Of a stretch of DNA of 64,000 nucleotides, positions 4,474 to 64,000 are shown one piece after another (the stretch's first letter is position 1; each line of letters opens with the position of its first letter). The notes beneath the pieces were generated by a model. That model made no database searches and had not been told where the DNA came from. It saw only the letters and a list, made by a program, of their open reading frames with translations. The position numbers and the translations under genes were made by a program. Origin of the DNA: Camelus dromedarius (Eukaryota); contig NC_087436.1 in assembly GCF_036321535.1 (NCBI RefSeq), positions 60,762,001-60,826,000 on the forward strand, in the 5' to 3' direction.

Positions 4474-6307
4474 GGGGAGACGGAGCAAGATGGTGGAATA
4501 GAAAGACTCTGAGCTCACCTCCACTCACAAGCACACCAAAATCACAACTATTTGCAGGACAACCATTAATGAAAAAGACCATAACCTAACAGAAAATATC
4601 TTCTACAACTAAAGATATAAAGAAGGAACCACAACAATCAGGGTAGGAGAGGTGGAATCACCCTATAGTCAAATCCTAAACCCCTAGGTGGGTGATTCAC
4701 AAACAGGAGAATAATCACAACTGCAGAGGCTGTCTCAAAGGAGCAAGAGCCCTGCGTCAGGCTCACTAGCCCTGGGATCCTGCACCAGGACGACAAGCCT
4801 CCAGAGCATTTGGTTTTGAAGGCCAGCCAGGCTTACTTTTGGGAATTCCAGATGGCTGGGGAAAATAGAGACTTCACTTGTAAAGAGTGGACACAAAATC
4901 TTGCACACTCCAGAACCCAGGGCGGAAGCGGTAATTTGAATAGGAACCTGGGTCAGACCCACTTGCTGATCCTGGAGATTCTCCCAGAGACGCAGGACGC
5001 AACTACTGCTCTCCCTTGGGACATAGACACTGGTGGCAGCCATTTGTGGAAGTGCCTTCTACTACATGGACACTGGTGCAGGAAAGCGCCACTTTGGAAT
5101 CTTCCTTCTATTTTATTAGCCCCAAGACACAGCCCCACCCTGGCCCAACTATCTGCACGTGCCAGTGCTTGGATGCCTCAGGCTGAGCAACTAATGGACA
5201 GAGACACAGCCCCACACATGAACAGACAGGCTGCCTTAAGAACCCATGAACCCATATCCACCTCTGAATGGTTAAAAAGAACAAAACCTATATAAAAGCT
5301 GCCTACAAGGGACTCAATTCAGATCTAAAGACACACACAGACTGAAAGTGAGGGGATGGAAAAGGTATTCCATGTAAGCATAAATCAAAAGGAAGCCGGG
5401 GAAGCAATACTTACATCAAACAACTGGATTTTAAAATGGGCCAAAGACCAGAATAGACATTTTTCCAAGAAAGACATACAGATGGCAAAAAGGCACATGA
5501 AAAAATGCTCAACATTGTTAATCATCAGAGAAATACAAACTAAAACCACAAGGAGACATTATCTCACACCTGTCAGCATGACTGTCATCAAAAAGACCAC
5601 ATAACAAAGGCTGGCAAGAATGTGAAGAAAAGGGAACTTTAGTACATTGTTGGTGGAAATGTAAATTGGTACAGCCAATATGGAGAACAGTATAGAGGTT
5701 TCTCAAAAAACTAAAACTAGAACTGCCATATGGCTCAGCAATTCCACTCTTGGGTATTTAAAAAAAGGAAAACATAAATTAGAAAAGATATGGAAGCAAA
5801 CTAAGTGTCCATCACCAGATGAATGGATAAAGAATTGATGTGTGCACACACACTCACACACACACACACACACACAATGAAATACTACTCAGCCATAAAA
5901 AAGAATGAAATTTTGTCATTTGCAGCAATATAGATGGACTTGGAGGGTGTTATGCTAAGTGAAATAAATCAGATTGAGAAAGACAAATAATGTATGATAT
6001 CACTTGTAGAATCTAAAAGAATAAAACTAACTAGTGACAATAAAAAAACAGAAGCAGATTCACAGATATAGAGAAAAAGCTTGGTTACCAGTGGGGAGAG
6101 GGAAGGGAGGAGAGGCAAGATAGGGGTAGGGGTTGAAGAGATACTACTATGTATGAAATAAATAAGCTACAAGGATATATAGTACAACACAAGGAACATA
6201 GCCAATATTTTATAATAACTATAAATGGGATATAACCTTTAAAATTATGAATCAATGTTGTACACCTAAATCTTATTATTATAAATCAACTATACCTCAA
6301 TAGAAAA
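4474..6307 (+). mobile_element. Internally deleted cetartiodactyl-type LINE-1: 5'UTR, short ORF2 EN piece, ORF2 C-terminus and 3'UTR
   Basis: Starts ggggagacggagcaagatgg (L1 5' end with YY1 site). EN remnant at ~5263-5422 ([21 protein letters not shown]). C-terminal remnant [26 protein letters not shown]. The 3' end is aatcaactatacctcaat. A degenerate 15-bp TSD matches at 12/15 positions (4459-4473 vs 6308-6322). Confidence 0.9.
5845..5876. repeat. (CA)n microsatellite inside the L1 3' region
   Basis: cacacacactcacacacacacacacacacaca is directly visible. Confidence 0.95.
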
Positions 6308-8544
6308 GAAAACATTAGATATAAAAATGTGAGATTCACAATTGAAAGACTGCTTCTGAAAATTTTCAGACAGCATCTTCTTCAGGATGGATACAGAGGA
6401 TCAATTTGTGGGACTACATCATTAGCATCACCTCATCATCACCATCTAATCTAGGAGCTGAAGAGGTGGGAAACTTAGTTATAATTGGGGGAGGAGGGTC
6501 AATGACTCGGTTACATTGTTAAATCAGCTGTGCCCTAGATTATAGGAGCCAAACAAATGAATTTGCTCTTCCACAATCTCAGCTGAAAATGAAGGTTCAT
6601 TTAGTCTCACTAACATGAAATACAATTACCATAGGAGCATCTACTAGCTACCAATGCTGAAAAAATGCTCCTACTGTATAATGTTAAGCCTTAAAGTACA
6701 ATGACTAAAATTATAACAAATTTAAATAATTTGACTTTATTTAATAACATTTATTTTTCCATTTGACATTTTTTCTATATTATGATATCCATCTTGGCCA
6801 TCTGTTGATTTTAACATTTGACCATTCAACCTCTAGCCAAAATGCATGTACATTCAGTACACCTCAGTGATTTCACTGCTTTCCCTTTGTTAAGATGCCA
6901 GACTGAGTCTACATTGAAAAACTATGTTCTATATTTTTATGTTTAAAATTATGTAATATTCCTAGAAAAGCCTATTCCAATTTACTCAGAACCTTCAAGT
7001 ACTTTTGAAAAGTACTATTAAAATTCATTCTCTCAAGTATCCCTTTTGGAATTAGTGTAAGTTTCTACAAAATTTCAACAACAACCCAACAAAGTCAACC
7101 AGATTTTATTATTTAGAATATGTACACTCATTTTAGAGCTTGTGTAGAGTAACTTTTGGTTTTGAAACTTTTGCTAAAATATTTTTCAGTCTTCTGTAGA
7201 CAGCATGCTTTGCATACAGCTCTATTTTTTTTTTTTATTTTGTTAATGCAGAAAGTCAAAAATTAGGTTTTAAATATATGGCTTTACTAATTAAATATCC
7301 AATACTCACCAAGTGTGGACAAACGAGACAGGATGAACCACAGAGCTCTTGCGAGAGAAATCGGATGTTTGTACAACAGGGAAGATGCTGCTGTGGACAT
7401 ATTGGCACAATGAGCCCTGACTCACTCTCTTATTCAGAGCAGGTGCACATTTGGGCAGTAGCCTATGTCCATTTTTGAGGCTGTTATAAAAACAGCTAGA
7501 TAAATATTTCATGAATCTCAGGAAAGCAACTGGAAGAGAATAACTGATGAAAATAAATACCGAGGGCAAAGGGTATTCGACTAAAGTGTGGACATAGGGA
7601 AATTTGCCAGTTTAAACAGGAAACAGAAAGAGAAAGGAACATTAAAACTTCCTGACCTGAAGCAAGACTCTGTTGTCCAAAAGGAGATTCATCTTCCAAG
7701 TGAAAAAGTGACTAGTAGGTAAAGAGCTAGCTGACCCTAAATTTAACAATTTTACTGACCCAGAAGGAGATAAGTTCTGATGACACCTGATAGGTAGTTT
7801 TCAAAGGAGCTGTTCACACTGACAGTTGTCAAAATGGCTGAATGAGAGTGTTCATTATAGCATGGGTGCACACACAATTAAGTACATAAAATCTCTTTTG
7901 TTTTTAAATATAATCTCTCTTGTTTTAGCTAATGAGAGAAAGACTATTTCATCTTGCCCTTGTCATAATGGAGATGCAAACCCTTTTCTGAGTAAAGTAT
8001 ATTGGCTCTTTAAAAAATGATCTCCACTCTTTACAGAAGAAACCTGAGCTTTAATTCCTTGTTAAGAACCAAACATGCATGTGGAATACTTTGGGCTCTA
8101 TATTGTGGTACAATTACACTTCCTCATAACAGCTTTCTGGTAGTGAGTATTGGCTCACACTTTGTTTTAGAGCAGTAATGATTTTTTTTTTTTTGCAAAG
8201 ATGCACACATTATCTTTTTATTGAAATTCCATTAATACTTCATGGCTGAAAATTATTGTTTGTTATTACACAGTAGACATTCTTAAAAATTTTGACATTT
8301 TCTGAGTATTTTTTTCATTTCTTCTTTGAACAAGATATTTTTGAATTTTCTGTTATTTAAAATGCATAATTGTGTGGAACTCATACATGATGATTGTTTA
8401 ATTTGATCATCGTTGATGGTTGTACATTTTACTTATTTGATCCACTAACATAACAGAATATGACTGTCATTTTGTGAAATTTTGTGTTTAGCAATAATTT
8501 TTGAGGACCTTGCATCATTTACATCATGTGCAAAAGAAATCACT

Positions 8545-8685
8545 CCTGGCTTGAGAGTGAGCTCTTGTGTCAAATGGCTGAAGTTCGATCTTGAATCTAC
8601 TATCCATTAGCTGTCTGATATTGGGCAAATGACTTCACTTCATCTGTAAAATGGGGAAAACAATATTAACCACCTCACTGAGCTA
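8545..8685 (+). mobile_element. MIR SINE fragment
   Basis: MIR core: ttgaatc...tagctgtctgatattgggcaaatgacttcacttcatctgtaaaatgggg. Confidence 0.7.
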
Positions 8686-8689
8686 TTTT

Positions 8690-9050
8690 TTCATTTAGTC
8701 AATAGTTGATTTTGAAGGTTTGCTATGTGCCAGACTTTCTTCTAGACACCAAGGATACAGCAGTAACCAAAAAGAAAACCTCCCTTCCCTTTGGGCCATG
8801 TTGGTTCTATTGAAGGAGACATGGTATAAACACATACTATATAAAGTATGTAATAAAGAAAAGTAAGAGGAATAAAGAAAAAAATATCAGGAAAAGGAAA
8901 ATAGATGGACAGAGTTTTGCTACCTTAGATGGCCAATTAGGGAAGCCCTCCCTGGGTGAGAATGAAGAAAAGGCAAAACCTAGGGGAAGACGATCCCAGG
9001 TAGAGTAACATGTACAATCACCCTGAAATTAAAATAAGCTTATGTTTTGA
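8690..9050 (-). mobile_element. LINE-2 3' fragment
   Basis: tcatttagtcaatag...tgctatgtgccagac...ggatacagcagtaacc is the antisense pattern of the L2 3' end. Confidence 0.6.
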
Positions 9051-9079
9051 AAGAAGCACAGAGCTTACATGAATTTAGT

Positions 9080-9460
9080 CTTTACTATGTAGCAGGCTCT
9101 GTTCTAAGCGCTTGATACTTGTTATCTGTTATATCTCCTCCATAATTCTAAAAGTTAGGTGCTACTATTAATATCAGCCTCATCGTATAGATGAGGGATT
9201 CAAGACAGAGTGTTTTTAAGTAATCTGTTGAAGGTCACACAGCCAGGAGTGGATAGGCATGATAAAAATCCATGTTTGAATCCACGAACTGTGGTCTTAA
9301 CCACCAAGCTCCTATTACATGCCTGTGGCACCTCCCATGTAACTGATGAGGGAAGAAAGGTCCAGATAGGAACATGATTTGCCCACATTCACATAGCAAG
9401 TCAGGAGAGATGTTGGGACCAGCATCCAATCTTAGTGTTAGAACTAAACATCTAGTCACT
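9080..9460 (-). mobile_element. Degenerate MIR fragments
   Basis: tactatgtagcaggctctgttctaagcgc...atagatgaggg...aaggtcacacagc...tttgaatcc, followed by a second partial core at ~9340-9460. Confidence 0.6.
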
Positions 9461-10085
9461 CCTTTCCTAAGTGGTCACTGAGCCTCCTGTTACGAAAAAC
9501 CTTGTACCAGGCACCAGGGGCAGAGGAGTAAGTGTGAACCACAGAGAACAAGCCCCTGACCTCGTGTTAAAAATGAAGTAATTTATTCAGCATTATTCTA
9601 ATTTGGTGGTGACTTTCTCTCCCCTGCTACATTCTACCTTTCCCCCATGCTATCCCTGCCCTTTCCTGGCTATGTCTGTCTGGTGGCATGTTTGTCTCCC
9701 TTGCTGAACTGTGAGATCTTTTATGGTAGTAAGTGGGTTTGTTACAATCAGTCCCCATCCTGGCACTCAGTAGACAAACAGGGAAGAGCTTTTAAATAAA
9801 CATGTATATGTGTAAGATGATGTTGCTCAAGTATATTTATAGTAGCATTAGTTATAACAACAAAAAGTAGGAAATAACAAGTATCTATCTTAATGTAACT
9901 GGCTAAAATTATGAAGGTCAGAAATTTAATGCAGCCATTAAAATAAAAGACATTTTTATGATTTTTTAAAGCGTAACCACCATGCTATATTTTATTCCAT
10001 CTTTTTCATAGGATTCTTGCTAAGTTGCTATGGGTTTATAGGCAAGAACTGCTAATAGCTCATAGAATTTTTTCCAGTGACTATT

Positions 10086-10230
10086 GTTTTTTATTGAAGT
10101 AGAGTGATTGGAAATACTGCATTAGTTTCAGGTGCACAGCATAATGATTCAGTATCTTTAGAGACCATACTCGATTAAATGATCTTACATGATAATGGTT
10201 ATAATTCCTTGTTCTGTACAATATATCCTT
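10086..10230 (-). mobile_element. Short LINE-1 3'-end fragment (cetartiodactyl type)
   Basis: A T-run followed by attgaagtagagtgatt...ttagtttcaggtgcacagcataatgattcag...tacaatatatcctt. This is the antisense of the same 3' end seen at ~6170-6300. Confidence 0.8.
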
Positions 10231-10649
10231 AAAGCAGTAATGATTTCTATCAAAGTTTCACCAATAACCTTTCTCAGCTATATGAATGGGATATATAAAG
10301 GCTAGGGCGTTTCTGGCAGCCCAGATGTCAAATGTGTCACCTTCTTGCTCGCACAAATCTGATGACACCCCCAAAGACCTCAAGAGGAAAATCCTTCTTC
10401 TCTGAAGGGAGTATTCACATTGTCAGAGCAGATGCAATTGGGAAAGCTAAGAGTATACAGTCCTGAAGATTTTGGCTTGCCTGGACAAAATATATTTTAG
10501 CTTTTGTTGGTTCCAAATTTTGCCGGTTTTTCCCATCTTTGTTATAGCCATTTTAATTCCTCTACTTTTCAAATGCTAGGTCTGCCTCTGTCCCCACGTT
10601 ATTTGAAGTACGTGAAGACAAAGACAGCACAAATAAGTTCTCTTCCACT

Positions 10650-26019: not shown

Positions 26020-26535
26020 TATGTTATCAGTTTATAACAGCAACTACATTCAGCTGCTAAAAACAGAGTTCCAACAACAGAGACTTAAAATTCACATTTT
26101 TCTCACATAACAGAAGTAAACAGTTGATGACATTGATTCAGAAGTTCAGGAATATTAGTACTGAAGTACCTGTGATGCTCTTGATATTTTTTTCAAGGTC
26201 CCACGGTGGTTGCTCTGACTTCGGCCGTCTCAGCCCATGTCAGGAAGGTAGAAAAACAAGGCTTCCGCCTGAGGCAGCCCTTTTAAGAGCTGCCCTGGAA
26301 GCCTCAGCCAATGGCCCAGAGCTGCCCTGGAAGCCCCAGCCAATGGCCCAGAGCTGCCCTGGAAGCCCCACCCAGTGTCTCGTGATTATGTCTCACTAGC
26401 TACCTAATTGTAGTGGGGTCGTGGAGATGTGATTTTTAAACTGGGCATATTACCGTGACCAATAATATAAGAGCGCTGTTACTCAGTTAGAAGAACAGAG
26501 TTGATATTAAGTAGGCAACTAGGAGTCTTTGTAGT
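26020..26535 (-). mobile_element. MaLR LTR remnant (MLT1J/K-like)
   Basis: attcagctgctaaaaacagag...ttttctcacataacagaagt...gagatgtgatttttaaactgggca...gtaggcaactagg. Confidence 0.55.
26286..26370. repeat. 32-bp minisatellite, ~2.7 copies
   Basis: The unit agagctgccctggaagcc(t/c)cagccaatggccc starts at 26286, 26318 and 26350. Confidence 0.95.
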
Positions 26536-27805: not shown

Positions 27806-28005
27806 TGTTAAGACCCAAAGGACGGGAGTTCTTGCGCCTGGTCACCTTGGCCCGAGGCTCCCCCAGTTGATCGCCTTTCCCTTGGGCAATAAAAAGCAGC
27901 TTTTCATTCTATCTTTTGCCTCCGCTGTGAATTCTTTCATGGTAGAAAGGCAAGAGCCCACACTTTGGGGGTTTTCCCCATGGGGAGGCCCCCTGCCCGC
28001 TAACA
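27806..28005 (+). mobile_element. Short or partial ERV LTR (R-U5-like portion)
   Basis: Termini tgtta...taaca. AATAAA at ~27888 is followed by a U5-like tgaattctttc...caagagcccac. Several CpGs are retained. No matching TSD. Confidence 0.6.
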
Positions 28006-40262: not shown

Positions 40263-42463
40263 TGCCTGTCAAATTCTACTCATCCTCGAAGGCACCTCCT
40301 AAATGACATCTCCTCCATTAAATCTTCTACTAGACCCTAGCCTAATGCCTCACATACAGTCTGCGCTAAAAATGCATCTAGTGAAAAAAATTCAATCACT
40401 TAGGACTTGAGTGGTTAGAGATAAGCTCATAGAAATTGTACGTGAGCCAGACCTTTCAAGATCAGCAGAAAATAGCAGTCCAAAGGTAGATAAATACTTA
40501 ATTTTTATCCTACAAACAAGAAATAAAGAAGGAGATCAAAAAAGGAGCCATAAAGGGGTTATCTGAAGGTAGATTTGAGAATGCACTTTATTGATCCATG
40601 AGAAACAGTGTAGAAGAGATTCAGATCATTGTAACTGGAAGTATAAAAACTTAGCCCTACAATATTTAAGGACTGGCTAATAACCTAAAAGGCTAATAAA
40701 CCAAGGAGAAATAAAGAGATTTCTTTCATGTGTAAGCTGTTGAACAAAGCAAGACAAGATTTTTTATTAAATATAGGAAGTGTCTCCAGATTTTATTTTG
40801 TTCAGTATCTCGAAGGAACACAGGGTTGGGTCACAGGCAAAGATGAGTGATCATCCTAAAACATTGTGATGGGAAGAACAGCCAACAAAGAATTACATAT
40901 TCTGGCTGCATAGTTATTCTGGCTAGACCACTTTCCTGGAAAAAGATGCTCTAAGTTGAAACTATATTAGTATTCATAGTTATAAGAGCCCAAACACATA
41001 CCTTCCAAAGAAACAAAGCATTCTTGCTTCTCCCTGTATTTCCTGTATAATAAAACCTAAAAGACAATGATGCGTCACTCCCATGTAGCTAGAACAGTTC
41101 ATCAGAGAATTACCAAGAATTGTGCAGACATTACTGACCACTACTTTAATACGAATTTAAGGAGACTTCCTCATGGACAGGGAAAAAAGGATATAAGCAA
41201 TTTCAGGGTTTGAAGGAAAATATTGGAATAATGCCAGTTTGCAAGAATCAGCAGTTTGCCAAATGAAGGTCTCACTCAGGAAACAAAAAGAAGCAGTTTC
41301 ATAATCAAACAAAATTGCCAGCCTGAAACATCTGTCACTTCACCCTTAACCCTGCACTCTTTCGCTACAACATTTTAGGAGATTTGATATTTCTATGAAG
41401 CTGTGGATCATGTTTCTTTTTCAATTCTTTCATTCCACTAACAATTTCACTACAATACCAAAGTAACGAATCTCCTAGGATCCTCACAAAGAAATGCATT
41501 TTGCAAAGATTTCCCAAGTGTACTGGAATTGATCCCAGGAAGCTTGGCAATTCTCCTTTCGTTGATGTCACCCTGTTTCCCTGTTTCCAGCCTTTTTCAC
41601 AGACTGGTCCCTTGTTTCCCTTACTAAATCTCTTTCTGTTTCTCACAGCAGTCTCCTGAGACTAGTGTGACTTGAGGAGAAGATCCTTGAGATACCTTCC
41701 CTCCCTGAGATCCTGCCATCTGTGAGTATGAGGGGTCCATGATAAGATCATAGAAGTATCCATAGCAAGTCTTAGGTCCTTTTTGCTTTTCCTCTTCAAA
41801 ACCTAAAACTAAACTTAAACTCATTAGGCAAAAATAAATCATGTGACCATTTTTTTCAAATTATCATTTCCTTGGGGTGCTTCCCCAGAAAGGAATTAAA
41901 AAGAAAGGGCCCGTTTGCACTCTAGGAACAAATAATAATGGCTTATAATGACCATGACAATAAGCACCAGCTTATGGAGTCTAGGGCTGAGAATAAATCA
42001 GGGTGGGCCTAGTATGAAACAGGCAGTGGTCCTGATAGGTAGTAGGCAGAGGACCTAAGGAGAAATGCAGTGATTTCTGTCACACTTTTCCATCAATCTG
42101 TGGTTTGCTTTCTGTGGTATTGTTTGGTAGTGAGCTTTAAGAAATCTCTTCCACATACATGCTCCCGTTCTCTTACCTCTCGATTTGGAGATCAGCTAGA
42201 TGTTACAAAGATCAAGAAGAAGAAAATTATGTCTGAAATGTGTGAAGAAGAACTTAGGAAATATTCAGTCTATTTAATCTATTAGAGTGAGCACACTAAG
42301 CCTAAGAGATCGATAATTGTTGTAGGAGGGTTGTGTGGGAACACACTGCAAATTGTAGTAAATCTCTTTCTGCATAAAATATTTCCTGAACTGAATTCTG
42401 AATGGCAGAGTAGATACATCTCATATGTATGAAGTTGATGAGATCATCTCATCTCAAATTCTT

Positions 42464-42592
42464 TTTTTTTTTAACATTTTTAATTGAGTTATAGTCATTT
42501 TACAATATTATGTCAAATTCCAGTACAGAGCACAATTTTTCAGTTCTGCGTAAACATGTATGTATTCTTGTAACATTTTTTTTCGCTGTGAG
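42464..42592 (-). mobile_element. Young, very short (~129 bp) 5'-truncated LINE-1 insertion
   Basis: A T-tail and L1 3'-end sequence (attgagttatagtcattttacaat...aaattccagt) flanked by a perfect 15-bp TSD, tcatctcaaattctt, at 42449-42463 and 42593-42607. Confidence 0.9.
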
Positions 42593-42817
42593 TCATCTCA
42601 AATTCTTACATAAGGAAAGAAGAATCTCATTCTTTGATCTATAAACTGGAATAGTCTAAAGACAATTGTGCCCACACACAAAAAAAAAAAAAAATCATGA
42701 ATCGTGGCTTCAACCAGTCTTTTGAAAGAAGAGAAAACGAACTTGAAAGCAAATGTTAACATTTTAAATAGCCAATTAGAAACTAGTATTGAAAATCAGC
42801 TGTTTGGTTAAAACAAA

Positions 42818-43452
42818 TTGTAAGCAGACAGGGTAGGGGATCCCCAGAGGAAAAGAACCAGACTTGGCTTCAATCTCTCTCTCTCTCTTTTTTTTTTTTT
42901 TTTTGACATAAAAGAAGCCATTTTGGCCAAAGCCATTTTGTGATCTTAGCCCGGCTACCATGCTTGCCCTTCAACAAGTCAACAGGTCTCAGCAATCAAT
43001 GATCTTAAGGGAACAAAGGAATGCAGGAACAGAGAAAAGGCAGTCAAGCAATAGTGCAGTGATAAAACAAGAGTTCTCATTCCTCCTCAAGGAATATTCA
43101 TAATAATATATCTTTGAGTTCTGCAGGAACTAAGGTTCCCACCCAGGTGGAGTATGGAATGATGATGGCCCTCTTGATTTCAATTAATGCATCAACCCAA
43201 GACTTGGACTCTGGATCTCTGCCCTAATTCTATGCTGAATTCTCCGTTCAAGCCCCTTGTGACTATGCATGTACTTTTAGCTTAAAAATTCCCCAGTTTT
43301 GCTGTTTGGGGAGATATTGCTTTGGGAAAGATCCTCAGTGTTCCTCTTATTTGCTGCAAGTGATAATAAATCCTTCCTTCTTCCCCTCTTTGACTTGGTT
43401 GTGTCTTTTGGCTTGACATCCACCAAGAAGCAAACCCAGTTTTGGGGTAACA
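42818..43452 (+). mobile_element. ERV1-like solo LTR (family C in this report)
   Basis: Termini TGTAAG...GGTAACA with AATAAA at ~43365 and approximate flanks aaat/aatt. Contains an internal CT/T tract. Confidence 0.85.
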
Positions 43453-44326
43453 AATTGTATGTTATATAAAGCATGATTGATTTTGTTACATTATTGGTGG
43501 GGGGGGTACTTCAGAACTTGTTCCTTGGTATGTAGAGTTGGATGTTAAATAAGTAAAGGAAAAAACATTCTAAAATTCACAGAGCTGAGCAGTATTATGT
43601 CAAAATATACTATACTTCCAATTGCTCCAATTATTAGCAAGTTTTTATTTTTAGTTACTCCCAATTAAATTAGTTAAGACAGTAAATAATAGCATATTTG
43701 TAGCAAGTGTTTCAAAGTTAATGAGAATTATTAAAGACAATTTTTATCACATGCCTTCCCCACAAAGCCAGGAGATTAATAACTAAATAGGGATGTTACC
43801 CACAGCTTGGCTGCCAGGAAGAATTATATGAACTAATTAACAAAAGACCTTGGAGGAAAGTGGTCTCATTTACAATCTTGATAAAAAGGAGGGGAGAAAA
43901 CATACCACAAAGGAAAAGATAAACAGATGATTCTGTGAACTCTCCTTTCTTTATAATACAATATATCATAACTAAAATAAAAAGCAAAAGCTAATAAAAC
44001 AGTATCAGGAAAAGACATGAAATTGAAAAGAAACATATAAGAAAAAATTAGTGAACAAATAAATGAAAAAATAAAAGAAATTGGAAATTAAAATTTTGAA
44101 AACGTGTTATACCTAATAAGTGTGCAAAATAAAAATAAGGTAATATCTATGCTGGTAACGTATATATGTAAATGGATAAATATTGTAGAAATCATTTTTA
44201 GTATGTAGTCCAAAAATTATGTAGACAGTAGTATTCTTTGTATAGTAATCTCATCTGCATCAGATTTTCCTAAGAATTATCTAAAGGAAAGAATATCTAT
44301 ACTTATTGCAAAATTACTTATGTTAG

Positions 44327-44794
44327 TGTGAATGAAAAGTACTGCAACCATATCAGTAAACAAAGAATGCTGAAACCATCAAGTCATCAGCGGCTGCTGC
44401 CACGCCCCAGTGAAGACAAGCCTGCAGCCCAGCCTCTGCAGCCACTCACAAACGGTGCACTCTGAAGGCCCTCAGAATAATAAAGGACAGGATACTGGCC
44501 CTAGATAGCTAGGTGCTTGTCAGGAATGAACTCAATGAGTCCAAATGTTTGCTCCCTCTCGTACATAGAAAAGCACTAAATTCTTTAACTTGAGATGTCT
44601 AGTTTTCTTTAGATAATGAGTATTCTTTTATTGTTCCAACTACCTGGTCTTTGTTGTAAAGCTCCTATATATCCTAGACCCTCCCCTACCTCTTCAGAGC
44701 AGTCCCTCAGAGGGACTGTCATCCCAGCTCAAGTCCTCCTGCCAAACGAAACATAACTCTCATCTTTTAGGCTCTGCATTTATTTCAGTCGACA
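44327..44794 (+). mobile_element. ERV1-like solo LTR (family A, copy 1)
   Basis: Termini TGTGAATG...GTCGACA with flanks ttag/gtag and a TATA-like ctatatat at ~44665. An inverted copy lies at 46279-46757. Confidence 0.92.
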
Positions 44795-45366
44795 GTAGCA
44801 AAAAAGACTAGATATTTAGCAACAGGAAATGAGTAGTTAAATTTTGATCTATTGATTTGATGGAATAGTATTGGGCAACAACTAAAATGTTATTTGTGAG
44901 GATTCTGTAGCAACATACCATAAATGCTAAGTGTAAATAGCTATCGAAAAACTACACAGCTGTAGCGAACAGAGAGAAATGTAGAAAAAGAAAAAATTTG
45001 GGGGTGGAAATATTGCTCATTCTGAATCTAATTTTTATCCACGTATTTTTATCACTTATTTGAGGAGAAAGATAATACAGTGGAAGACTGCTCAGACTTC
45101 TACTGGAATTCAATCATTTCAAGATAGTCAAATATAAGCTCTTCTAGTTAAACCTGCATTACAATTTATTTCAGAAACAATATCCTTCAGTTATATATGT
45201 GCTGTGACATTACACTCAACAAAATACTTGATCAGGGCTATCAATTCAGGTATAGGAGATTTCACAGGATGTTTCACTGAACTAACTGATGTTTTGGATT
45301 CTAGAATGAGGACTGAGGTCTGGTGCAGGTGGAGGACACCAGAAAAGGCAATACAGACAGAACCAG

Positions 45367-45856
45367 TGTGAAGGAAAAGCCAGGCTGGGCCAACAAGATA
45401 ACTCACAAGTCTAAGAATGTGAAAGAAAAGCAGGGCTGGGCCAATAAGATAACTCACAAATCTAAGTATCAGAATACTGATCTGAGTTCTGCTGGACTAA
45501 CTCGTAAATCTAAGTTAATTAGTGTTGGTTTGCTGATTCCCTGTTCATGTTGTTTTTATTGTTGTTGTTTTTTGCTAGGCAGCTGGATTTTCAAAGAGAT
45601 ATATCTGGCTTTGGAATGTTGGTTTGCTGCCTCCCTGCCTCCACTTTTGTGATAATGATGCTGCTAAAGCTGTTTCATGACTATTGGCCGAATACCCCAA
45701 GCTTGTACTTAACCCTATAAAGCCACATGCACAAGTCTTGGAGGTGCTCAGAGCTTCGGAGCAGAAGCCCCTCTGAGCCCACCGGCATACTACATCTGAG
45801 TACTCCAACCCTCCGAGTGGTGCTTGTTTCTTGGCTGGCCTGTCATTTCCGTAACA
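45367..45856 (+). mobile_element. ERV1-like solo LTR (family B, copy 1)
   Basis: Termini TGTGAAGG...GTAACA with a perfect 4-bp TSD ccag and TATA ctataaa at ~45715. Homologous to 48930-49392 and 50629-51073. Confidence 0.92.
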
Positions 45857-46278
45857 CCAGAACTGTTCTAATTAGAAATCATCTCAGGGTGCTTAGAGAA
45901 GAGAAAGTGAAACAGACATCAGAGCTCTCCTCTATATCCTTTATAATTTTATCCTGCATAATATCCTTTATAATTTTACTTGTATGAGTATGTGTAAAAA
46001 TTGCTGCAGGAAATTCATTACAATGCCAGCTCAGTCTGCCTGTACAAATCCTTCGGTTGCTTTTGAAAAAGCCCAAGTTAGTGATTTGTCTCTAGATATT
46101 ATACATAAATATCCAAACCAAGTATTAGATCAGGGGTCAAAAGCTCAAGGCCTGGGGGGCTAAAACTGGCTTACAGATGAATGTTTGGGTGGACACATTT
46201 TGGACAAAAGTTTGAATTGGAATGCCGTATGGTGGAGCCAGCAGTCTGGACCAATTCAAGCATTCTTGTCATTTGCCT

Positions 46279-46757
46279 TGTCGACTGAAGTAAATGCACA
46301 ACCTAGAAGTTGAGAGTTACGTTTCGTTTGGCGGGGGGACTCAAGCAGGGATGACAGCCTCTGAGATCCCGCTGAGGGACTGCTCTGAAGAGGTAGGGGA
46401 GGGTCTAGGATATATAGGAGCTTTACAACAAAGACCAGGTAGTTGGAACAATAAAAGAATATTCATTATCTTAAGAAAACTAGACATCTCAAGTTAAAGA
46501 ATTTAGTGCTTTTCTATGTACGAGAGGGAGCAAACATTTGGACTCATTGAGTTCATTCCTTTGACAAGCACCTAGCTATCTAGGGCCAGTATCCTGTCCT
46601 TTATTATTCTGAGGGCCTTCAGAGTGCACCGTTTGTGAGTGGCTGCAGAGGCTGGGCTGCAGGCTTGTCTTCACTGGGGCGTGGCAGCAGCCGCTGATGA
46701 CTTGATGGTTTCAGCATTCTTTGTTTACTGATATGGTTGCAGTATTTTTCATTCACA
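46279..46757 (-). mobile_element. ERV1-like solo LTR (family A, copy 2, inverted)
   Basis: Reverse complement of 44327-44794, with a perfect 4-bp TSD gcct on both sides. Confidence 0.92.
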
Positions 46758-47236
46758 GCCTGGATCCCAGAGCCATTCAAGCTGACACATTTGACACCTA
46801 TATGAGAAACAGATTTTTGGACTCAGAACTAGTGGGAAAATGAATGTATTCTAAACAGTCTTGTGAATAGGCCCCAGCTCAACTTTCCCTTCAAGGCCTG
46901 GGGCTGTGGCTACTGGGTTTGATTTCCTCAAAGCAATGTGGTTGCCGAGGTTGGGGAAGTTGTATGACCTCGCCCCTGCCCTTTGTTCTCTTAGCCCAAG
47001 GTGCTGAGACAGTTTGCAGCTGTTGTCTTGGGATCAAACCATCAGTGCAAGGTTGGAATTTGTCAGCCTTTGGTAAGTTGAAAAAGCCACTGGGAGGCCC
47101 TTATCTTCTTTCTCTGCCTCCTGCGGAGAGAAGCAGCTCTCAGCAACCCTTAATTGACTATTATGCAATAATATTCAAACGTGATGATGTTGGCATATAG
47201 TGAGAATCCCTATTTAAAAGAAAAACACAATGATTG

Positions 47237-47860
47237 TGAGACAGGAAGGGGGCAGCGCACAGCCTTTCAAGGAATGCCACAGCAATTAACATCAAAATGG
47301 TGAAAGATTCATCCCCCAGTAGGCCTTGAGGCTCAGGATGATGAGAGATTTAACTTCTAGCAGATCTTGAGCTTCATTATATGCTCACTGTAATATATTA
47401 ACATGGTGAATAACACGCCCCCAGGCACCATGGCTGTCCCAAGGCTAGCCACAAAATGTCAAAGAGTGGGAAATGGCCAACTTCCTGGAAATCCCAGCCC
47501 CTTCCCCAGGCTACTTAGACTGGTCCTTCCACTTGTTAGCATATGAAGCCACCAAGTCCGTAAAAACCAGCAACATGGAGCCTCTCGGCCTCCCCTCTCT
47601 CTCTGTCTTCGGAGATGGCCCACATTCTGTCTATGGAGTGTGTACCTACTTTTAAACTGAGCACCCAACCCCCACATCTCGTGGCCTTTCTCTTGCCTTT
47701 CAATGCATCTCTCTGAATAAATCTACCTCTCAACTGGTTTGCTCTTGAATTCTTTCCTGCACGAAGTCAAGGACCCACACTTGGCGGGTCACAACCCAGG
47801 GGCTCAGCCAAGACCTGGGACACAGCCCTCCTCATGCCCCACATTTGTTTTCCTGCATCA
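47237..47860 (+). mobile_element. ERV1 solo LTR, MER41-like (family D)
   Basis: Termini TGAGACAGG...CCTGCATCA with a perfect 4-bp TSD attg. AATAAA at 47716-47721 is followed by U5 ctcttgaattctttcctgcacgaagtcaaggaccc. The MER41 assignment is from recall. Confidence 0.88.
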
Positions 47861-48250
47861 ATTGGAACATAGTGCAGTTAGCCTGTGTTTTATTTAACAC
47901 CTTTCACCTAAGAATCTCAGAGGTGTTATAGCAATTAGCTGGTTAACTTTTAATGAATGAAGTATTTTCATTCTTATAGCCTGCAAACCACATATAAAAC
48001 TCATAACTGAATTTTAAAATGTAGAAAACTAAAGGGATAGAACAATTTTAAAAATAGGATAAAGCCCCTTCACTGGCTTTAAATCTGTCCAATAGGAAGA
48101 AACATTGCATTTAATAGATAAAGGCATCTGTAGGGCACGGTCTGAAAAAACACATTTTCTCCCTCTAGCATTTTTTCACAACTAGATTGAAATAATACAT
48201 AATCGCTCTTGTGTACAGAGCATCTGCTGCTCAGGCATCTTTAACTTTTT

Positions 48251-48266
48251 GGCGACATCTACTGTA
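48251..48266 (-). promoter_or_regulatory. Candidate CTCF motif
   Basis: The minus strand reads TACAGTAGATGTCGCC, resembling the CTCF core CCASYAGRKGGCRS. The CpG is retained. Confidence 0.3.
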
Positions 48267-48929
48267 CAAACAGGGAAATGCTGTGGACTCATTCTGTACC
48301 CAGAGCATATTCTATAAATTATTTTATTTTTTATTTACAATGCTACAACTTTTTTGATACTTCCCTTCAATATAAGAAGGCCTCACTTTAAAATTTTAAG
48401 GATATTTAAGTAATTTCCATATGTATTACACCACAGAGCCATAGAAATATCAGTCTGTGCTGACAAATTCAAACTTAATTTTCTAGTAGATACTTTAAAG
48501 ATCATTTCAACTTAGAGACTCTGCTAAAACTCTATTTGAATATTAGGGAAAATACTAAAGTGGATATTTAAATGCATTTTCTTATATTTAAAGAGAACCA
48601 TTCTGAGGACTGAATTAAATATTATTTAAATATGTATTACTTAGTTGTATTTAATTTAAAATAAAATATTATTTAAATTAATATTATAATAGTAATATTT
48701 ACAGTAGAACTTGAACTTTAAACGAAATAAAAGCTACAAATAGTTGTCAGTTTGCCTTCCTATTTCTCACTCTGGCTATAAAAAATAGAATTACTTGGTA
48801 TGTACCAGCGTTATTTATACTCTTAAATTATGCTTAACCTGTTCCACAGTTGATGGTTTGCAAAAGACTGAAACAGTTCATTTCATAGCTCATGACTGTA
48901 AGTAGGGAATTCTTTCAGAGGCATTTGGT

Positions 48930-49392
48930 TGTTATGGAAACGACAGGCCAATCAAGAAACAAGCACCACTCGGAGGGTTGGAGTACTCACATGTATTACG
49001 GTGGCGGGCTCAGAGGGGCTTCTGCTCCGAAGCTCTGAGCACCTTCGGACGTGCGCATGAGTTTTTATAGGGTAAAGTACAAGCTTGGGGTATTAGGCCA
49101 ATAGGCATGGAACAGCTTTAGCATCATTATCATCACAAAAGTGGAGGTGGGGAGGCAGCAAACCAACATTCCAAAGCCAGATATGTATCTTTGAAAACCC
49201 AGCTGGCTAGCAAAAAACATGAACAGCAAACCAACACTAATTAACCTAGATTTACAAGTTAGTCTAGCAGAACTCAGATCAGTATTCCAATACTTAGATT
49301 TGTGAGTTATCTTGTTAGCCTAGCCCAGCCTCTCCTTCACATTCCTAGACTTATGAGTTATCTTGTTAGATCAGCCGGGTCTTTCCTTCACA
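48930..49392 (-). mobile_element. ERV1-like solo LTR (family B, copy 2, inverted)
   Basis: Reverse-complement homologue of 45367-45856 (tgttatggaaac...ccttcaca). The TSD is imperfect (tggt left, ggta right). Confidence 0.9.
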
Positions 49393-50628
49393 GGTAATTC
49401 AACAACAAAGTAAACAATTTTTCACTGAGCATCTGTTAAAGTATTATGCTAGATGCTTTCACCAATGTTGGAAAGGTATAGCTCCCAAAGAAAACCCAAA
49501 ATAGGAGGGCCCCCCTGTTCTTTGGCACACCTAGTCTCACCCACTGTAGTAAGAGGTAAGGAGATATTTCCCCCAGCAGTTATGGTTCTCCAGGTCTCAA
49601 AAACAAAACAAAACAAAAAAACTCTACTTTTTCAACCTGCCTATTGTAATCCAGTGGACAGACAGCCATTTCAAGTTTGCTGTGGTGTAAAAACCAGATA
49701 TGATAGAAGTAAACAAACCTAGAGTCTCATATAATGTTACATGAGCGTATTTAAACTATTAAGTAATCCCTTCACCATTGTGATTTCCTTTCCAGTCCTC
49801 AGTACCTTTTTTAAATTAATGACCCCAAGGCCCAATAATCTGCCTGAAAAAATAACCCAGGTCAGTGAGTCATTTAATTACTCTGTCATTATTTTTATAA
49901 TTTTAATAATTTAATAATTAAATATAAAATTATTAATTATTCTGCAAATATTTTTGGCATGGCTGGCTCACCCTGTAAACAACAAAAACATAGACTTTTT
50001 CTCAAGGGTTTTCAGCCTAGAAAAGGGATGCAACAGTTCAAATCAAATCAGAAGGTAATAAGTGACTGAATGAGATATACAGTAATGAGATTAGGATTTA
50101 GAAGAAGGTACAAGTACTTCCAGCTGAGGGAATCAGAGGAAAATCTATAAAGTGATCCTTTTGATCAAATATGAGGAGTCTGTGCAATTTCAAACACAGG
50201 TGTGGATAGTCTTGGATAGTCTAGGAAAGGAGGAATTCAAGAGCCAGGCCAACATGGAGACAGGGAGGCCTGGACAGGTACTCAACCCTGAGCAGCCCTG
50301 TATGCTCATTGGATACATGTTGGCTGTTACAGAAGTGACAAGGAAACAAACAGAGGCTAAGACATCTCCCAAAGGGCCTTGACTTGGAAACTGAAGAGTT
50401 TGGATACATTTACTAGGAAGTTGAGTGCCTTACTCCAGATCCCTAGATCATGGAAGGGAAATGTCTTCAAATCTGGGTTTCAAGTCAATTTCCTTTTAGC
50501 TTCATCTCAAAGCTGTTGTGCCAGGTTGGGTTTTCCCCAACTTCTTTCTTCTTATACTTTTGATTTCTTCCTGACCTTAGACTAAGGCTTTTTGGCAAGT
50601 TACCATACATAAATCTTTCACATTGGAT

Positions 50629-51073
50629 TGTGAAGGAAAAGCTGGGCTGGGCCAGCAAGATAACTCACAAGTCTAAGAATGCAGGCTAACAAGATAACTC
50701 ACAAATCTAAGTATCGGAATACTGATCTGAGTTCTGCTGGACTAACTCATAAATCTAAGTTAGTGTTGGTTTGCTGTTCATGTTTTTTTTGCTAGCCAGC
50801 TGGATTTTCAAAGAGATATATCTGGCTTTGGAATGTTGGTTTGCTGCCTCCCTGCCTCCACTTTTGTGATAATGATGCTGCTAAAGCTGTTCCATGCCTA
50901 TTGGCCGAATACCCCAAGCTTGTACTTTACCCTGTAAAACCTCATGCGCACATCTTGGAGGTGCTCAGAGCTTCGGAGCAGAAGCCCCTCTGAGCCCACC
51001 AGCGTAATACATGTGAGTACTCCAACCCTTCAAGTGGTGCTTGTTTCTTGGCTGGCCTGTCATTTCCATAACA
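50629..51073 (+). mobile_element. ERV1-like solo LTR (family B, copy 3)
   Basis: Termini TGTGAAGG...ATAACA with a perfect 4-bp TSD ggat. Confidence 0.92.
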
Positions 51074-59930: not shown

Positions 59931-62803
59931 ACCGGTTAAACGCCTCCCACACTGGTTCATAGTGCCTATGCTGTGGAATTACACTTAAGATGCTGCCTTA
60001 CAGGTAAGATAATGTTGCTAAGTCAATCCATTTATTTTGGGCTTGAGGTAAAAGATCATACGATAATTGTCTTTAGGGTCCAGTTCTGAAGAAATTAGAC
60101 AGACGTAAGAATATCAAAGATAATGGCCTGCTTCCCCTGGTACAACTTGGCAGAAGCCCCAGGTCTCTGTGAGAAACCCGGTGTTTGACTTGACATCCAA
60201 CTCAGCCCAGAATCAATAACAACACTTACGCAGGGATGTTCTCAGCAAGGTAGGCCTAATAAATACCAGCTCTCCGTGTGCCCCATATATGGTTTCAGAA
60301 GTGTCCACATAACCCAAGATACAGAGTATGAGAGGACCAATAATCTGGTGAAGGTGTGGGGGTCATGGCTGAAATATTCCAGGATTTCAACACTACAGGC
60401 AAATGACTGAGACCATTGACCTCAGAGCAGGTCCAGCACGTTGTCTCAAAACACCACACAGACGTGATCATATCCCAGTGGATACCAGTCAGGAGCTAGA
60501 TAAGATTCCACACTGCACAGAAAATCAGCAAGTGTTCGTAGAAATCAATATGCCTTCAAAACCCTCTTCTCCCCTGTTCCCACAAGGTAATTTAAGCCTC
60601 CTAAAAACCTAAAATATCTGGAATTAGAACAGGAGGGAGAAGAAAGAAATTTAAAAGGCTAAAAAGTTACACCAAAAAGACTGAAACAAGCCAAAGAGGT
60701 TATTTATGCTGGGAGAAATTGAGAGACCATTACTTTATATTCTAAAGTGGGATGCAGAAAATAAAAAAGTTGTGCTTTATTTGCACACGTGAGAAGCAAT
60801 TACTAGATTATTGAATTTACAGTATGTGTTTAATGTATCATTAGACTGAAAGTTCAGTGGAAAATGGAACTGCACCTTTTTGTTCTTATCATTGAAAGCC
60901 TAGGATGGTAATAGATATTTGATAAATACTTATCATATGAATGAATGGAAGAATGAATAATAAGTTACTTTCCTAGAGCTCAAGACCTGGAAAGGCAGGC
61001 AGACATGTAAACAGATACTTAAAATAAATACAATAAAAGATATGATAATTCTCAACCATCTCTGCCTATGAGGGGCAAAAAAACTTCGGAGAGGAACGGT
61101 GTAGATCTTGAAAGATTAATAGGGTTTGACAAGGATCTTCTGAACTAGAGAGAAACTTGGAAACTTTCTTGAGGTTAAAACTATTGATTTTATACTTCTT
61201 AATATTTTTTCTGAGCCCCAGCACAGTAAAAGGCATTCAGTAAATGCATTGGTTTAAGTTTCAGTTTGCAATTCATTTGTCAAAAGAAATTGACATTGCC
61301 TAGAACATATTTCCAACTGATGATGTCAGATGGAGTGCTTTTTCTAAGCTAAATTGATCACTACAGTGATCTTGTATAATGAGGTTTATTTATGAAATTA
61401 CCTACCATGGGATCAAATCAAATAATGATCATGGATAATCATATAATTGGATTTTTTTTTTTTTTGCTTTTTAGGTTTAAACATATACAAATTTAATAAT
61501 GATGGACTCTACCAATACTTTAGATTGGATTCTCCAAACAAGTCTTCTGTGTTTTTCATTTGAATTTCTCTACCTACTTTATTAAAATCTCATTGTATTT
61601 ATGTAATAAGTACTGAGCTTTAAATGTTATAAAAGGCTAATTTGATGTCTTTTATCACCATTTAGAATCTTCTTACTCTTGATGAATCAAAAATATTCAT
61701 CTCAAAATGGGAAAAAAGAGAGGCAAAGAGAGGGAGGCAGACAGAAGTTCAATTAGAGGCATATACTGATCACAATTAGATCAGATTTCCTTCAGATTTT
61801 GGATTAAATTATAGAATCATAAAATTCAAATTGTACTTCTGGAGGCAAACTTAGAAACCATCTACTCAATTCCTTTGTTTTACATATAAACTTTATTAAA
61901 CTAGAAATTGGATCAATAACCAGAGAAGTATCCTAAATGTCTTGATTTGAACTATTATTTTTTAATAACAACTTCATTGGGATATAACTAACATACTATA
62001 GAATTAACTGTTTTAAAGTGTACAATTCAATAGGTTTTAGTAGATGAACAGAGCTGTGTAACCATCACCAATGTCTGATTTTAGAGCACTTCCATCACCC
62101 CAAAAAGGAACCCAGCATTCATTAGGAGTCATGTTCCATTCTACCTTCCCCCAGCTGCTAGCAAGCTAATTTGCTTTCTGTCTCTATAGATTTGCCTATT
62201 CTGAATTTCATGTAACTTTAATAATACAATATGTTGCTTCTGTGGTGGGATTATTTCACTTAGCATGATGTTTTCAAGGTTTATCCACGTTGTAGCATAC
62301 ATTCTTTTTTAGCCAGATAATATTCCATTTTAAGGATATGCCACATTTTATCTATCCATTCATCACTTGAGAGATGTTTGGGTTGTTTCCATTGTTTGGC
62401 TATTAGGAATAACACTGCTATGTACATTTGTGTTCAAGTTTTTGTTTGGACATGTATTTTCAACCTGGAGTATATACCTAGGTATGGAATTGCTAGGTCA
62501 TACAGAAAACTCCAGGCTAAAATTTTGAGGAAATGCCAAAGTGTTTTCCAAAATGGCTGAGCCACTTTAAAATCCCACCAGCCATGCATGATGGTTTCAA
62601 TTCCTCTGTGTCTTGGTCAACACTTATTACTGTCTTTCTTAATGTATGGTTATCCTCGTGGATGTAAATTGGTATCTTCCTGTTTTAATTTGCGTTTCCC
62701 TAATGGCTAATGATGTTGAATATATTTTCATGTGTTTATTGGCCATTTGTTTATCTTCTTTGGAGAAATATTTATTCAAATCTTTTCTACATTTTTAAGT
62801 TGA

Positions 62804-63476
62804 TGTTATGGACTGAAGATTTGTGACCTGCCCCCTGCCCCAACGTGATAGCATTAAAAGTTAGGGCTTTGGACAAAATGTCAAAGAGTGGGAAATGGTC
62901 AACTTCCTGGGAATCCTAACCCCTTCCCCAGGTAGCTAGACTGGTCATTCCACTTATTAGCATATAAAGCTACCAAGCTCATAAAAACTGGCAACATGGC
63001 TCTTCACAGCCACCTCTTGCTCCCTCCTCTTCGGAGACTGCCTGCACTCTGTCTATGGAGTGTGTATCTACTTGAACCTGAGCACCCATCCGCCATCCCT
63101 CGTGGACTTTCTCTTGCCTTCTGAAACAGCCTACACTCTATGCAGTATGTATCTCTCTAAATAAATCTGCCTTTACTCAGAAAAAAAAAAAAAAAGGGCT
63201 TTGGGAAGTTAATTAGGCATGAAGGTAGAGCCCTCATAGATGGGATTAGTACCTTTAGAAGAGACTCAGGCTAGCTCTCCTGATCTCTTGCTTCTGTGTG
63301 AGGAGACAAGAAGTCAGCTGTCTGCAGCCTGCAATAGGGCTCTCACCAGAACCCGACTATGCCGGCACTCTGATGTCAGATTAACAGCTTCCAGAACTCT
63401 GAGAAATAAATTCCTGTGGTTTATAGGCCACCCAATTCATGGTACTTTGTTACAGCAGCCAAAACTGACTAAAACG
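62804..63476 (+). mobile_element. MaLR LTR MLT1A-like, nested in L1 and itself interrupted
   Basis: tgttatggactgaa...gggctttgg|gaagttaattagg...gatgggattagt...ctcaccagaacccgac...ccagaactctgagaaataaatt...cagcagccaaaactgactaa. Confidence 0.88.
62873..63194 (+). mobile_element. L1-retrotransposed (processed) copy of an ERV LTR U3-R, same family as 47237-47860
   Basis: Aligns to ~47451-47735. AATAAA at 63160-63165 is followed 15 nt later by an A-run. U5 is absent. The 10-bp TSD agggctttgg lies at 62863-62872 and 63195-63204. Confidence 0.9.
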
Positions 63477-64000
63477 GTAGGATTGCCTTTTTAATTATTG
63501 AAATGTAAAAGTTCTTTATACATTCTGGATACCAGTACCTTAGCAGATACATGATTTGCTAATATTTTCTCTCACTCTGTGGTTTGCTTTTCACTTTCTC
63601 GATTGTTTCCTTTAAAGCACAATTTTTTTTTTAATTTTCACAAAGTCCATTTATTTTTTTCCTTTTTGATCACTTGTGCTTTTGGTGTTATATCTAAGAC
63701 ACCATTGCCTAAGTCAAGGTCACAAAGATCTATTCTTATGTTTACTTCTTAGAGTTCTATAGTTTCAGCACTATGATGCATTTTTAATTAGTTTTTGTAT
63801 GCAGTGTGACGGAGGGGTTCAACATCATTCTTTTGCATGTGGATATCCAGTTGTCTCATTTCTTAAAAAGAATATTCTTTCCACTCATGAATTGTCTTGG
63901 CACACTGGTTGAAAAGCAACTGACCAGAAATGTAAGGGTTTATTTCTGTACTCTCAATTCTATTCCATTAATTTAGGGTTGAGTTTATAATAATTCTGCT

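Follow-up and report, generated by a model that had tools for sequence, protein, structure and literature searches.

The closest described systems are the processed pseudogenes of HERV-W, which are defined by a 3′ end at U3-R, a poly(A) tail, a TT/AAAA target and a TSD of 5-15 bp (PMC5016936). In an earlier HERV-W dataset copies of 0-0.5 kb were the commonest, a class in which PMC5016936 suspects over-split fragments. Among HERVs, mobilisation by LINE-1 (L1) is described as specific to HERV-W (PMC5537654), and it is reported as absent even from platyrrhine ERV-W (PMC6995185). The prior is therefore low for any given ERV family. Another kind of L1 product, the orphan L1 3′ transduction, consists of non-L1 sequence with poly(A) at a downstream signal and a TSD, and keeps no L1 remnant (PMC12350158). 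SVA/SINE-R elements have an LTR-derived 3′ end followed by an A-tail, are mobilised by L1 in trans and are often 5′-truncated (PMC3287187, PMC12593883).

An insertion that resembles all three lies in a stretch of 64,000 nucleotides (64 kb) from Camelus dromedarius, hereafter the window. It is mammalian DNA with a GC content of ~37%, and it holds what we take to be old L1, MIR/L2 and MaLR pieces together with several younger solo LTRs. The insert comprises 308 bp of LTR sequence and 14 A between two identical 10-mers (Table 1). The older LTR that it interrupts (62804-63476) is presumably a MaLR, MLT1-like. Like HERV-W processed pseudogenes (PMC5016936, PMC5537654), the insert has a U3-R end without U5, a poly(A) tail, a TSD within the 5-15-bp range and a truncated 5′ end. 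It differs from them in being one copy, against 135 of 213 loci in HERV-W, in lacking internal ERV sequence and an R-U5 5′ end, and in its degenerate target motif, non-primate genome and other LTR family. It shares the listed traits of orphan transductions, but its payload is wholly LTR and no source L1 was identified in the window. From SVA/SINE-R, whose tailed LTR end and truncation it shares, it is set apart by the lack of a VNTR or Alu-like part, and nothing points to a repeated family of such composites. The literature searched, covered in part, yielded neither a camelid case of ERV copies processed by L1 nor a retrocopy of MER41, and pseudogenes go unmentioned in the available portion of a camelid repeat survey (PMC8605555).

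Table 1. Features of the insert, its host site and the sequences compared with it (positions within the window).
Feature	Position	Strand	Remark
Canonical TT/AAAA motif	62854-62859	+	7 nt upstream of the 10-bp TSD
5′ TSD copy, 10 bp, AGGGCTTTGG	62863-62872	+	reads TT/AGGG, a degenerate L1 endonuclease site
5′-truncated LTR piece, distal U3 and R	62873-63180	+	~215-496 of the solo LTR, aligned to 47451-47732
Two TATA-like motifs, at 62963 and 62981	62963-62987	+	motif match only
Region with 23 nt absent from the solo LTR	63121-63150	+	exact gap placement ambiguous
AATAAA polyadenylation signal, single in the insert	63160-63165	+	15 nt before the A-run
Poly(A) tail, 14 pure A	63181-63194	+	15 A counting the first base of the 3′ TSD copy
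3′ TSD copy, 10 bp, AGGGCTTTGG, identical to the 5′ copy (10/10)	63195-63204	+	
Older LTR split by the insert, inside an old L1	62804-63476	+	~340 bp without the insert
Complete solo LTR of the same family, 624 bp, TG...CA, 4-bp TSD ATTG on both sides	47237-47860	+	U3/R/U5 reference
T-richest 30-nt windows of the solo LTR, 14/30 T	47726-47760	+	begin at the position matching the insert's 3′ end
14-bp TSD of a probable partnered L1 transduction	8171-8184 and 10233-10246		minus-strand insertion

The part of the solo LTR covered by the alignment runs from position 215 to ~496; the first 214 bp of U3 and all of U5 are missing, in agreement with the earlier note. The end of the LTR part in an A-run 15 nt past AATAAA (63160-63165, with the tail from 63181) was likewise confirmed, as was the contrast that the note drew between a perfect 10-bp TSD, seen as identical 10-mers at both junctions, and the 4-bp TSD of the solo LTR. 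Neither TG...CA termini nor a 4-6-bp TSD, the marks of a solo LTR left by integrase, were found in the insert. In the tested flanks no U5 or upstream-U3 remnants were detected, the best matches being chance 7-18-mers (E ≥ 0.27). None of the 46 ORFs listed is one of at least 90 aa over the insert, and the 64-kb window gave 0 Rfam matches.

The poly(A) tail, the TSD, the 5′ truncation and the loss of both the TG and the CA terminus make it very likely that the insert arose in the germline by L1-type target-primed insertion of a 5′-truncated, LTR-terminated RNA. Copying of an LTR piece from polyadenylated RNA to a new site by the L1 machinery is a known kind of event. Integrase products in the window look different: the six solo LTRs checked have TG...CA ends without exception, and four of them a perfect 4-bp TSD. 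L1 machinery was active here as well, since two other insertions, both on the minus strand, carry L1 3′ ends and TSDs of 14 and 15 bp. In the proposed mechanism, a Pol II transcript would have entered the LTR from upstream and been cleaved and polyadenylated ~14-15 nt past the AATAAA of the LTR. In the germline, this transcript would have been captured in trans by L1 ORF2p, which would have nicked the old MaLR LTR and primed on the poly(A). Reverse transcription would have run for ~310 nt and stopped in U3, giving a 5′-truncated U3-R-poly(A) copy between 10-bp repeats. The resulting copy is most likely inert.

Polyadenylation sites usually consist of a signal, a cleavage site and a U-rich downstream element. 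The 3′ end of the insert can be read as such a site because of its AATAAA, the CA that the solo LTR carries where the LTR part of the insert stops, and the T-rich stretch beyond. At the matching end point the solo LTR reaches 14 T in 30 nt, against 25% T overall, and judging by this composition 47726-47760 is likely the U-rich element downstream of the cleavage site, with which U5 would begin. The longest A-run in the solo LTR, the one full copy compared, is at most 5 nt, so the tail of the insert was not templated by the single full copy available. The insert had been proposed to mark the R/U5 boundary of its family, and this fits an end point at CA where the T-richest stretch of the solo LTR begins. 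The claim that the RNA began upstream of the LTR promoter holds if the motif assignment is right, as the TATA-like motifs, recognised by motif match only, lie 90-108 nt inside the 5′ edge of the insert. The single copy is a useful marker of the polyadenylation position for this LTR family, and little more.

Insert and solo LTR lie ~15 kb apart; 280 columns align, of which 237 are identical (84.6%), and the insert carries 23 additional bases. Identity varies between 72 and 95% over blocks of 40 columns, and only 2 of 27 transitions fall at a retained CpG. The uneven 15% divergence and the few CpG transitions suggest that the two belong to separate subfamilies, which makes dating by divergence from the solo LTR unsafe. 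It had been argued that the extra segment rules out the local LTR as parent. By itself it does not, as the solo copy could have lost the 23 nt later; that the local LTR is an unlikely parent is better argued from the 15% divergence beside an intact TSD and tail. The window contains no second copy of the LTR-tailed insert, and a pattern scan of viral contigs for other copies of the LTR returned 0 matches. Five metagenome loci were considered as LTR copies and all five were discarded, since they match only over a 20-24-nt seed, by chance. A different LTR at 27928-27972 has a short U5-start motif in common with the solo LTR (78% over 45 nt, E 0.003).

By its layout, the family of solo LTR and insert resembles the MER41-type ERV1 LTRs. 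The features in common with MER41-like LTRs, including MER41_Vpa, are a 4-bp TSD, an LTR of ~600 bp and a GAS-type motif in U3 of the solo copy, and the resemblance is one of layout. MER41_Vpa is a named camelid subfamily, and GAS motifs have been reported in a bovine relative (bioRxiv 10.1101/2021.10.01.462810). In the solo LTR the motif TTCCTGGAA at 47482-47490 is one of 3 strict plus-strand matches in the window and, should the family prove MER41-like, would be a candidate for interferon-gamma responsiveness. The insert differs at this position, where it reads TTC-N4-GAA (at 62904), which is not GAS.

The insertion is probably younger than the split between insert and solo LTR. This follows from the intact TSD and pure tail, which have a joint probability of 0.06 at 7.7% decay per copy, a rate taken as half of the insert/solo LTR divergence and applied to substitutions only, slippage being ignored. 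Between LTRs of one family the window shows differences of 3-11%, against 15% between the insert and its solo relative. The observed/expected CpG ratio of the insert (0.19) is close to the window background (0.18), and its difference from the younger LTRs of the window (0.30, pooled) is not significant (P=0.31). Background-level CpG beside an intact TSD and tail leans slightly towards late copying of an LTR that was already old, which would weigh against a proviral RNA.

Allele evidence comes from a list of sequencing runs ranked by their share of words from 62300-63700, in which 16 of 24 rows, from four organisms, hold 0.79-0.89 of the words. Such a list, made without alignment, cannot reveal empty alleles, and its best holder may be the source sample. 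An empty allele would hold at most ~0.74 of the words, from which rows at 0.79 are not distinguishable (P=0.14). The four rows at 0.82 or above, from two organisms, point to the filled allele (P ≤ 0.018) as far as word shares without alignment can be read. Two RNA rows (0.05 of words each) and two rows guessed to be RNA (0.11 and 0.28) are unaligned and have no evidential weight.

Copying stopped inside U3 and everything upstream of U3 is gone, so the identity of the RNA is not readable from the insert. Four RNAs fit its end: a proviral transcript, an L1 read-through, a host RNA with a solo-LTR end and an SVA-like element. The first of these, a proviral (gag-pol-env or env) transcript ending in the 3′ LTR as in HERV-W, is our tentative preference, at slightly below an even chance. 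To our knowledge, every proviral RNA ends exactly as the insert does. Against this source, the insert starts inside U3, and with internal ERV sequence and an R-U5 5′ end both absent nothing ties the RNA to a provirus. The earlier note had described the locus as ERV RNA mobilised in trans by L1. What survives of this description is an insertion of L1 type and an RNA that used the polyadenylation signal of the LTR itself; the label of ERV RNA does not, since proviral internal sequence is missing and three other routes leave the same structure. Read-through was part of the note's reasoning but missing from its title and inference, and its further conclusion that the LTR family was germline-expressed and L1-mobilised goes beyond what a single copy can establish.

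An orphan L1 3′ transduction is unlikely, yet deserves to be taken seriously. Here, transcription of an active L1 would have continued past its weak poly(A) signal into a same-strand solo LTR lying downstream, its RNA would end at the AATAAA of that LTR, and reverse transcription would stop before reaching the L1. The outcome would be identical in structure to the insert and would fit an old-looking LTR sequence with intact insertion marks. Orphans are documented in human data, where 48 stand against 878 partnered transductions (PMC12350158); they make up only a minor part of the L1 events recorded there, and just some of them would terminate in the LTR family of the insert. The route likely operates in the present genome, as the window holds a probable partnered case, a 2-kb L1 3′ transduction on the minus strand at 8171-10246. 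Directly at its 5′ TSD is a 148-bp L1 3′ end (70% to the L1 end at 6171-6310, E 3e-9), and it includes ~1.9 kb of carried flank with old repeats and an AATAAA ~21 nt before the A-run. Copying that ended 150 nt sooner would have made it an orphan. However, of 4000 random positions 18 have a 14-bp match within 7 kb, and the screen took in 15 A/T runs; the call therefore rests also on the L1 end abutting the TSD.

The probability is a little lower again for a heavily truncated processed copy in which a solo LTR of this family supplied the 3′ end of the RNA, either a host mRNA or lncRNA or a read-through transcript. It would leave the same structure as the insert, and solo LTRs are at least tenfold commoner than proviruses (PMC13756887). 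Read-through is also a common route of ERV transcription, clear 5′ LTR starts being found in 9 of 37 expressed HML-2 proviruses (PMC11359688). Such an origin nevertheless needs a germline-expressed RNA that ends in this LTR family and its truncation to less than 310 nt, and no candidate parent was found within the 64-kb window.

It is improbable that the insert is a 5′-truncated copy from a retroposon family not yet described, SVA-like and L1-dependent, with U3-R of this LTR as its 3′ end. In SVA the 3′ end is a piece of HERV-K10 env and 3′ LTR followed by an A-tail, and 5′-truncated copies are common (PMC12593883, PMC3287187), so a short truncated copy of a similar element would resemble the insert. 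However, of the 15 long A/T runs in the window just one terminates an LTR piece, a second copy is lacking there, and no such family appears in the available portion of the camelid repeat survey (PMC8605555).

Read at the 10-bp TSD, the target is TT/AGGG, a poor match to TT/AAAA that counts against the preferred reading, and the targets of the two L1-ended insertions in the window are degenerate too. The canonical motif further upstream (Table 1) has a counterpart, a TT/AAAA 0-8 nt upstream, at 1.3% of window positions. Counted from it, the repeat would be 17 nt long with 14 of 17 bases matching; the true nick may have been made there, with three bases lost by primer trimming or tail slippage. 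Among ~3000 random position pairs with ends anchored within 5 nt, none reached a 10-nt repeat (the best was 9, once), and in a laxer test 34 of 4000 random positions had a 10-mer match anywhere within 400 nt upstream. A solo LTR cut by two deletions with later A-run expansion, or a DNA-level capture, is the least probable origin and hardly credible. In its favour, the window is rich in A-runs of 12-23 nt (14 found) and the target departs from the canonical motif. Yet both termini would have to be lost, the 3′ break would have to coincide exactly with the poly(A) site, and a 10-bp repeat would have to flank the piece on both sides by chance, which no anchored pair attained.

The insert would matter if many such copies exist. 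We consider it quite doubtful that a camelid MER41-like ERV was copied wholesale by L1, as a second HERV-W-like case and a non-primate one, or that an SVA-like LTR-tailed element is at work. If true, such mobilisation would disperse pieces of U3 from near the promoter, the interferon-motif region among them, with no need for integrase. The frequent copying by L1 of HERV-W, and not of other HERVs or platyrrhine ERV-W, is described as unexplained (PMC6995185, PMC5537654); given many copies, a comparison for this puzzle would come from an independent family in a different order of mammals. In repeat annotation, L1-made LTR copies would be miscounted as degraded solo LTRs.

Other repeats lie elsewhere in the window. 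At 42449-42607, on the minus strand, a 5′-truncated young L1 tail of ~120 nt (42473-42592) with poly(A) and a 15-bp TSD is inserted beside an LTR at ~42800-43450; presumably it resembles camelid L1 ends. A dense cluster at 42800-51073 packs at least 7 solo LTRs into ~8 kb, among them an inverted pair (44327-44794 and 46279-46757) that is 96.8% identical and three copies of another LTR family at 89-95%. A second LTR family has a 51-bp unit in tandem duplicate at its U3 end (45367-45466 and 49295-49392), and the copies differ. A further tandem repeat, with a 32-bp unit in 2.8 copies and 96% matches, is found at 26286-26374.
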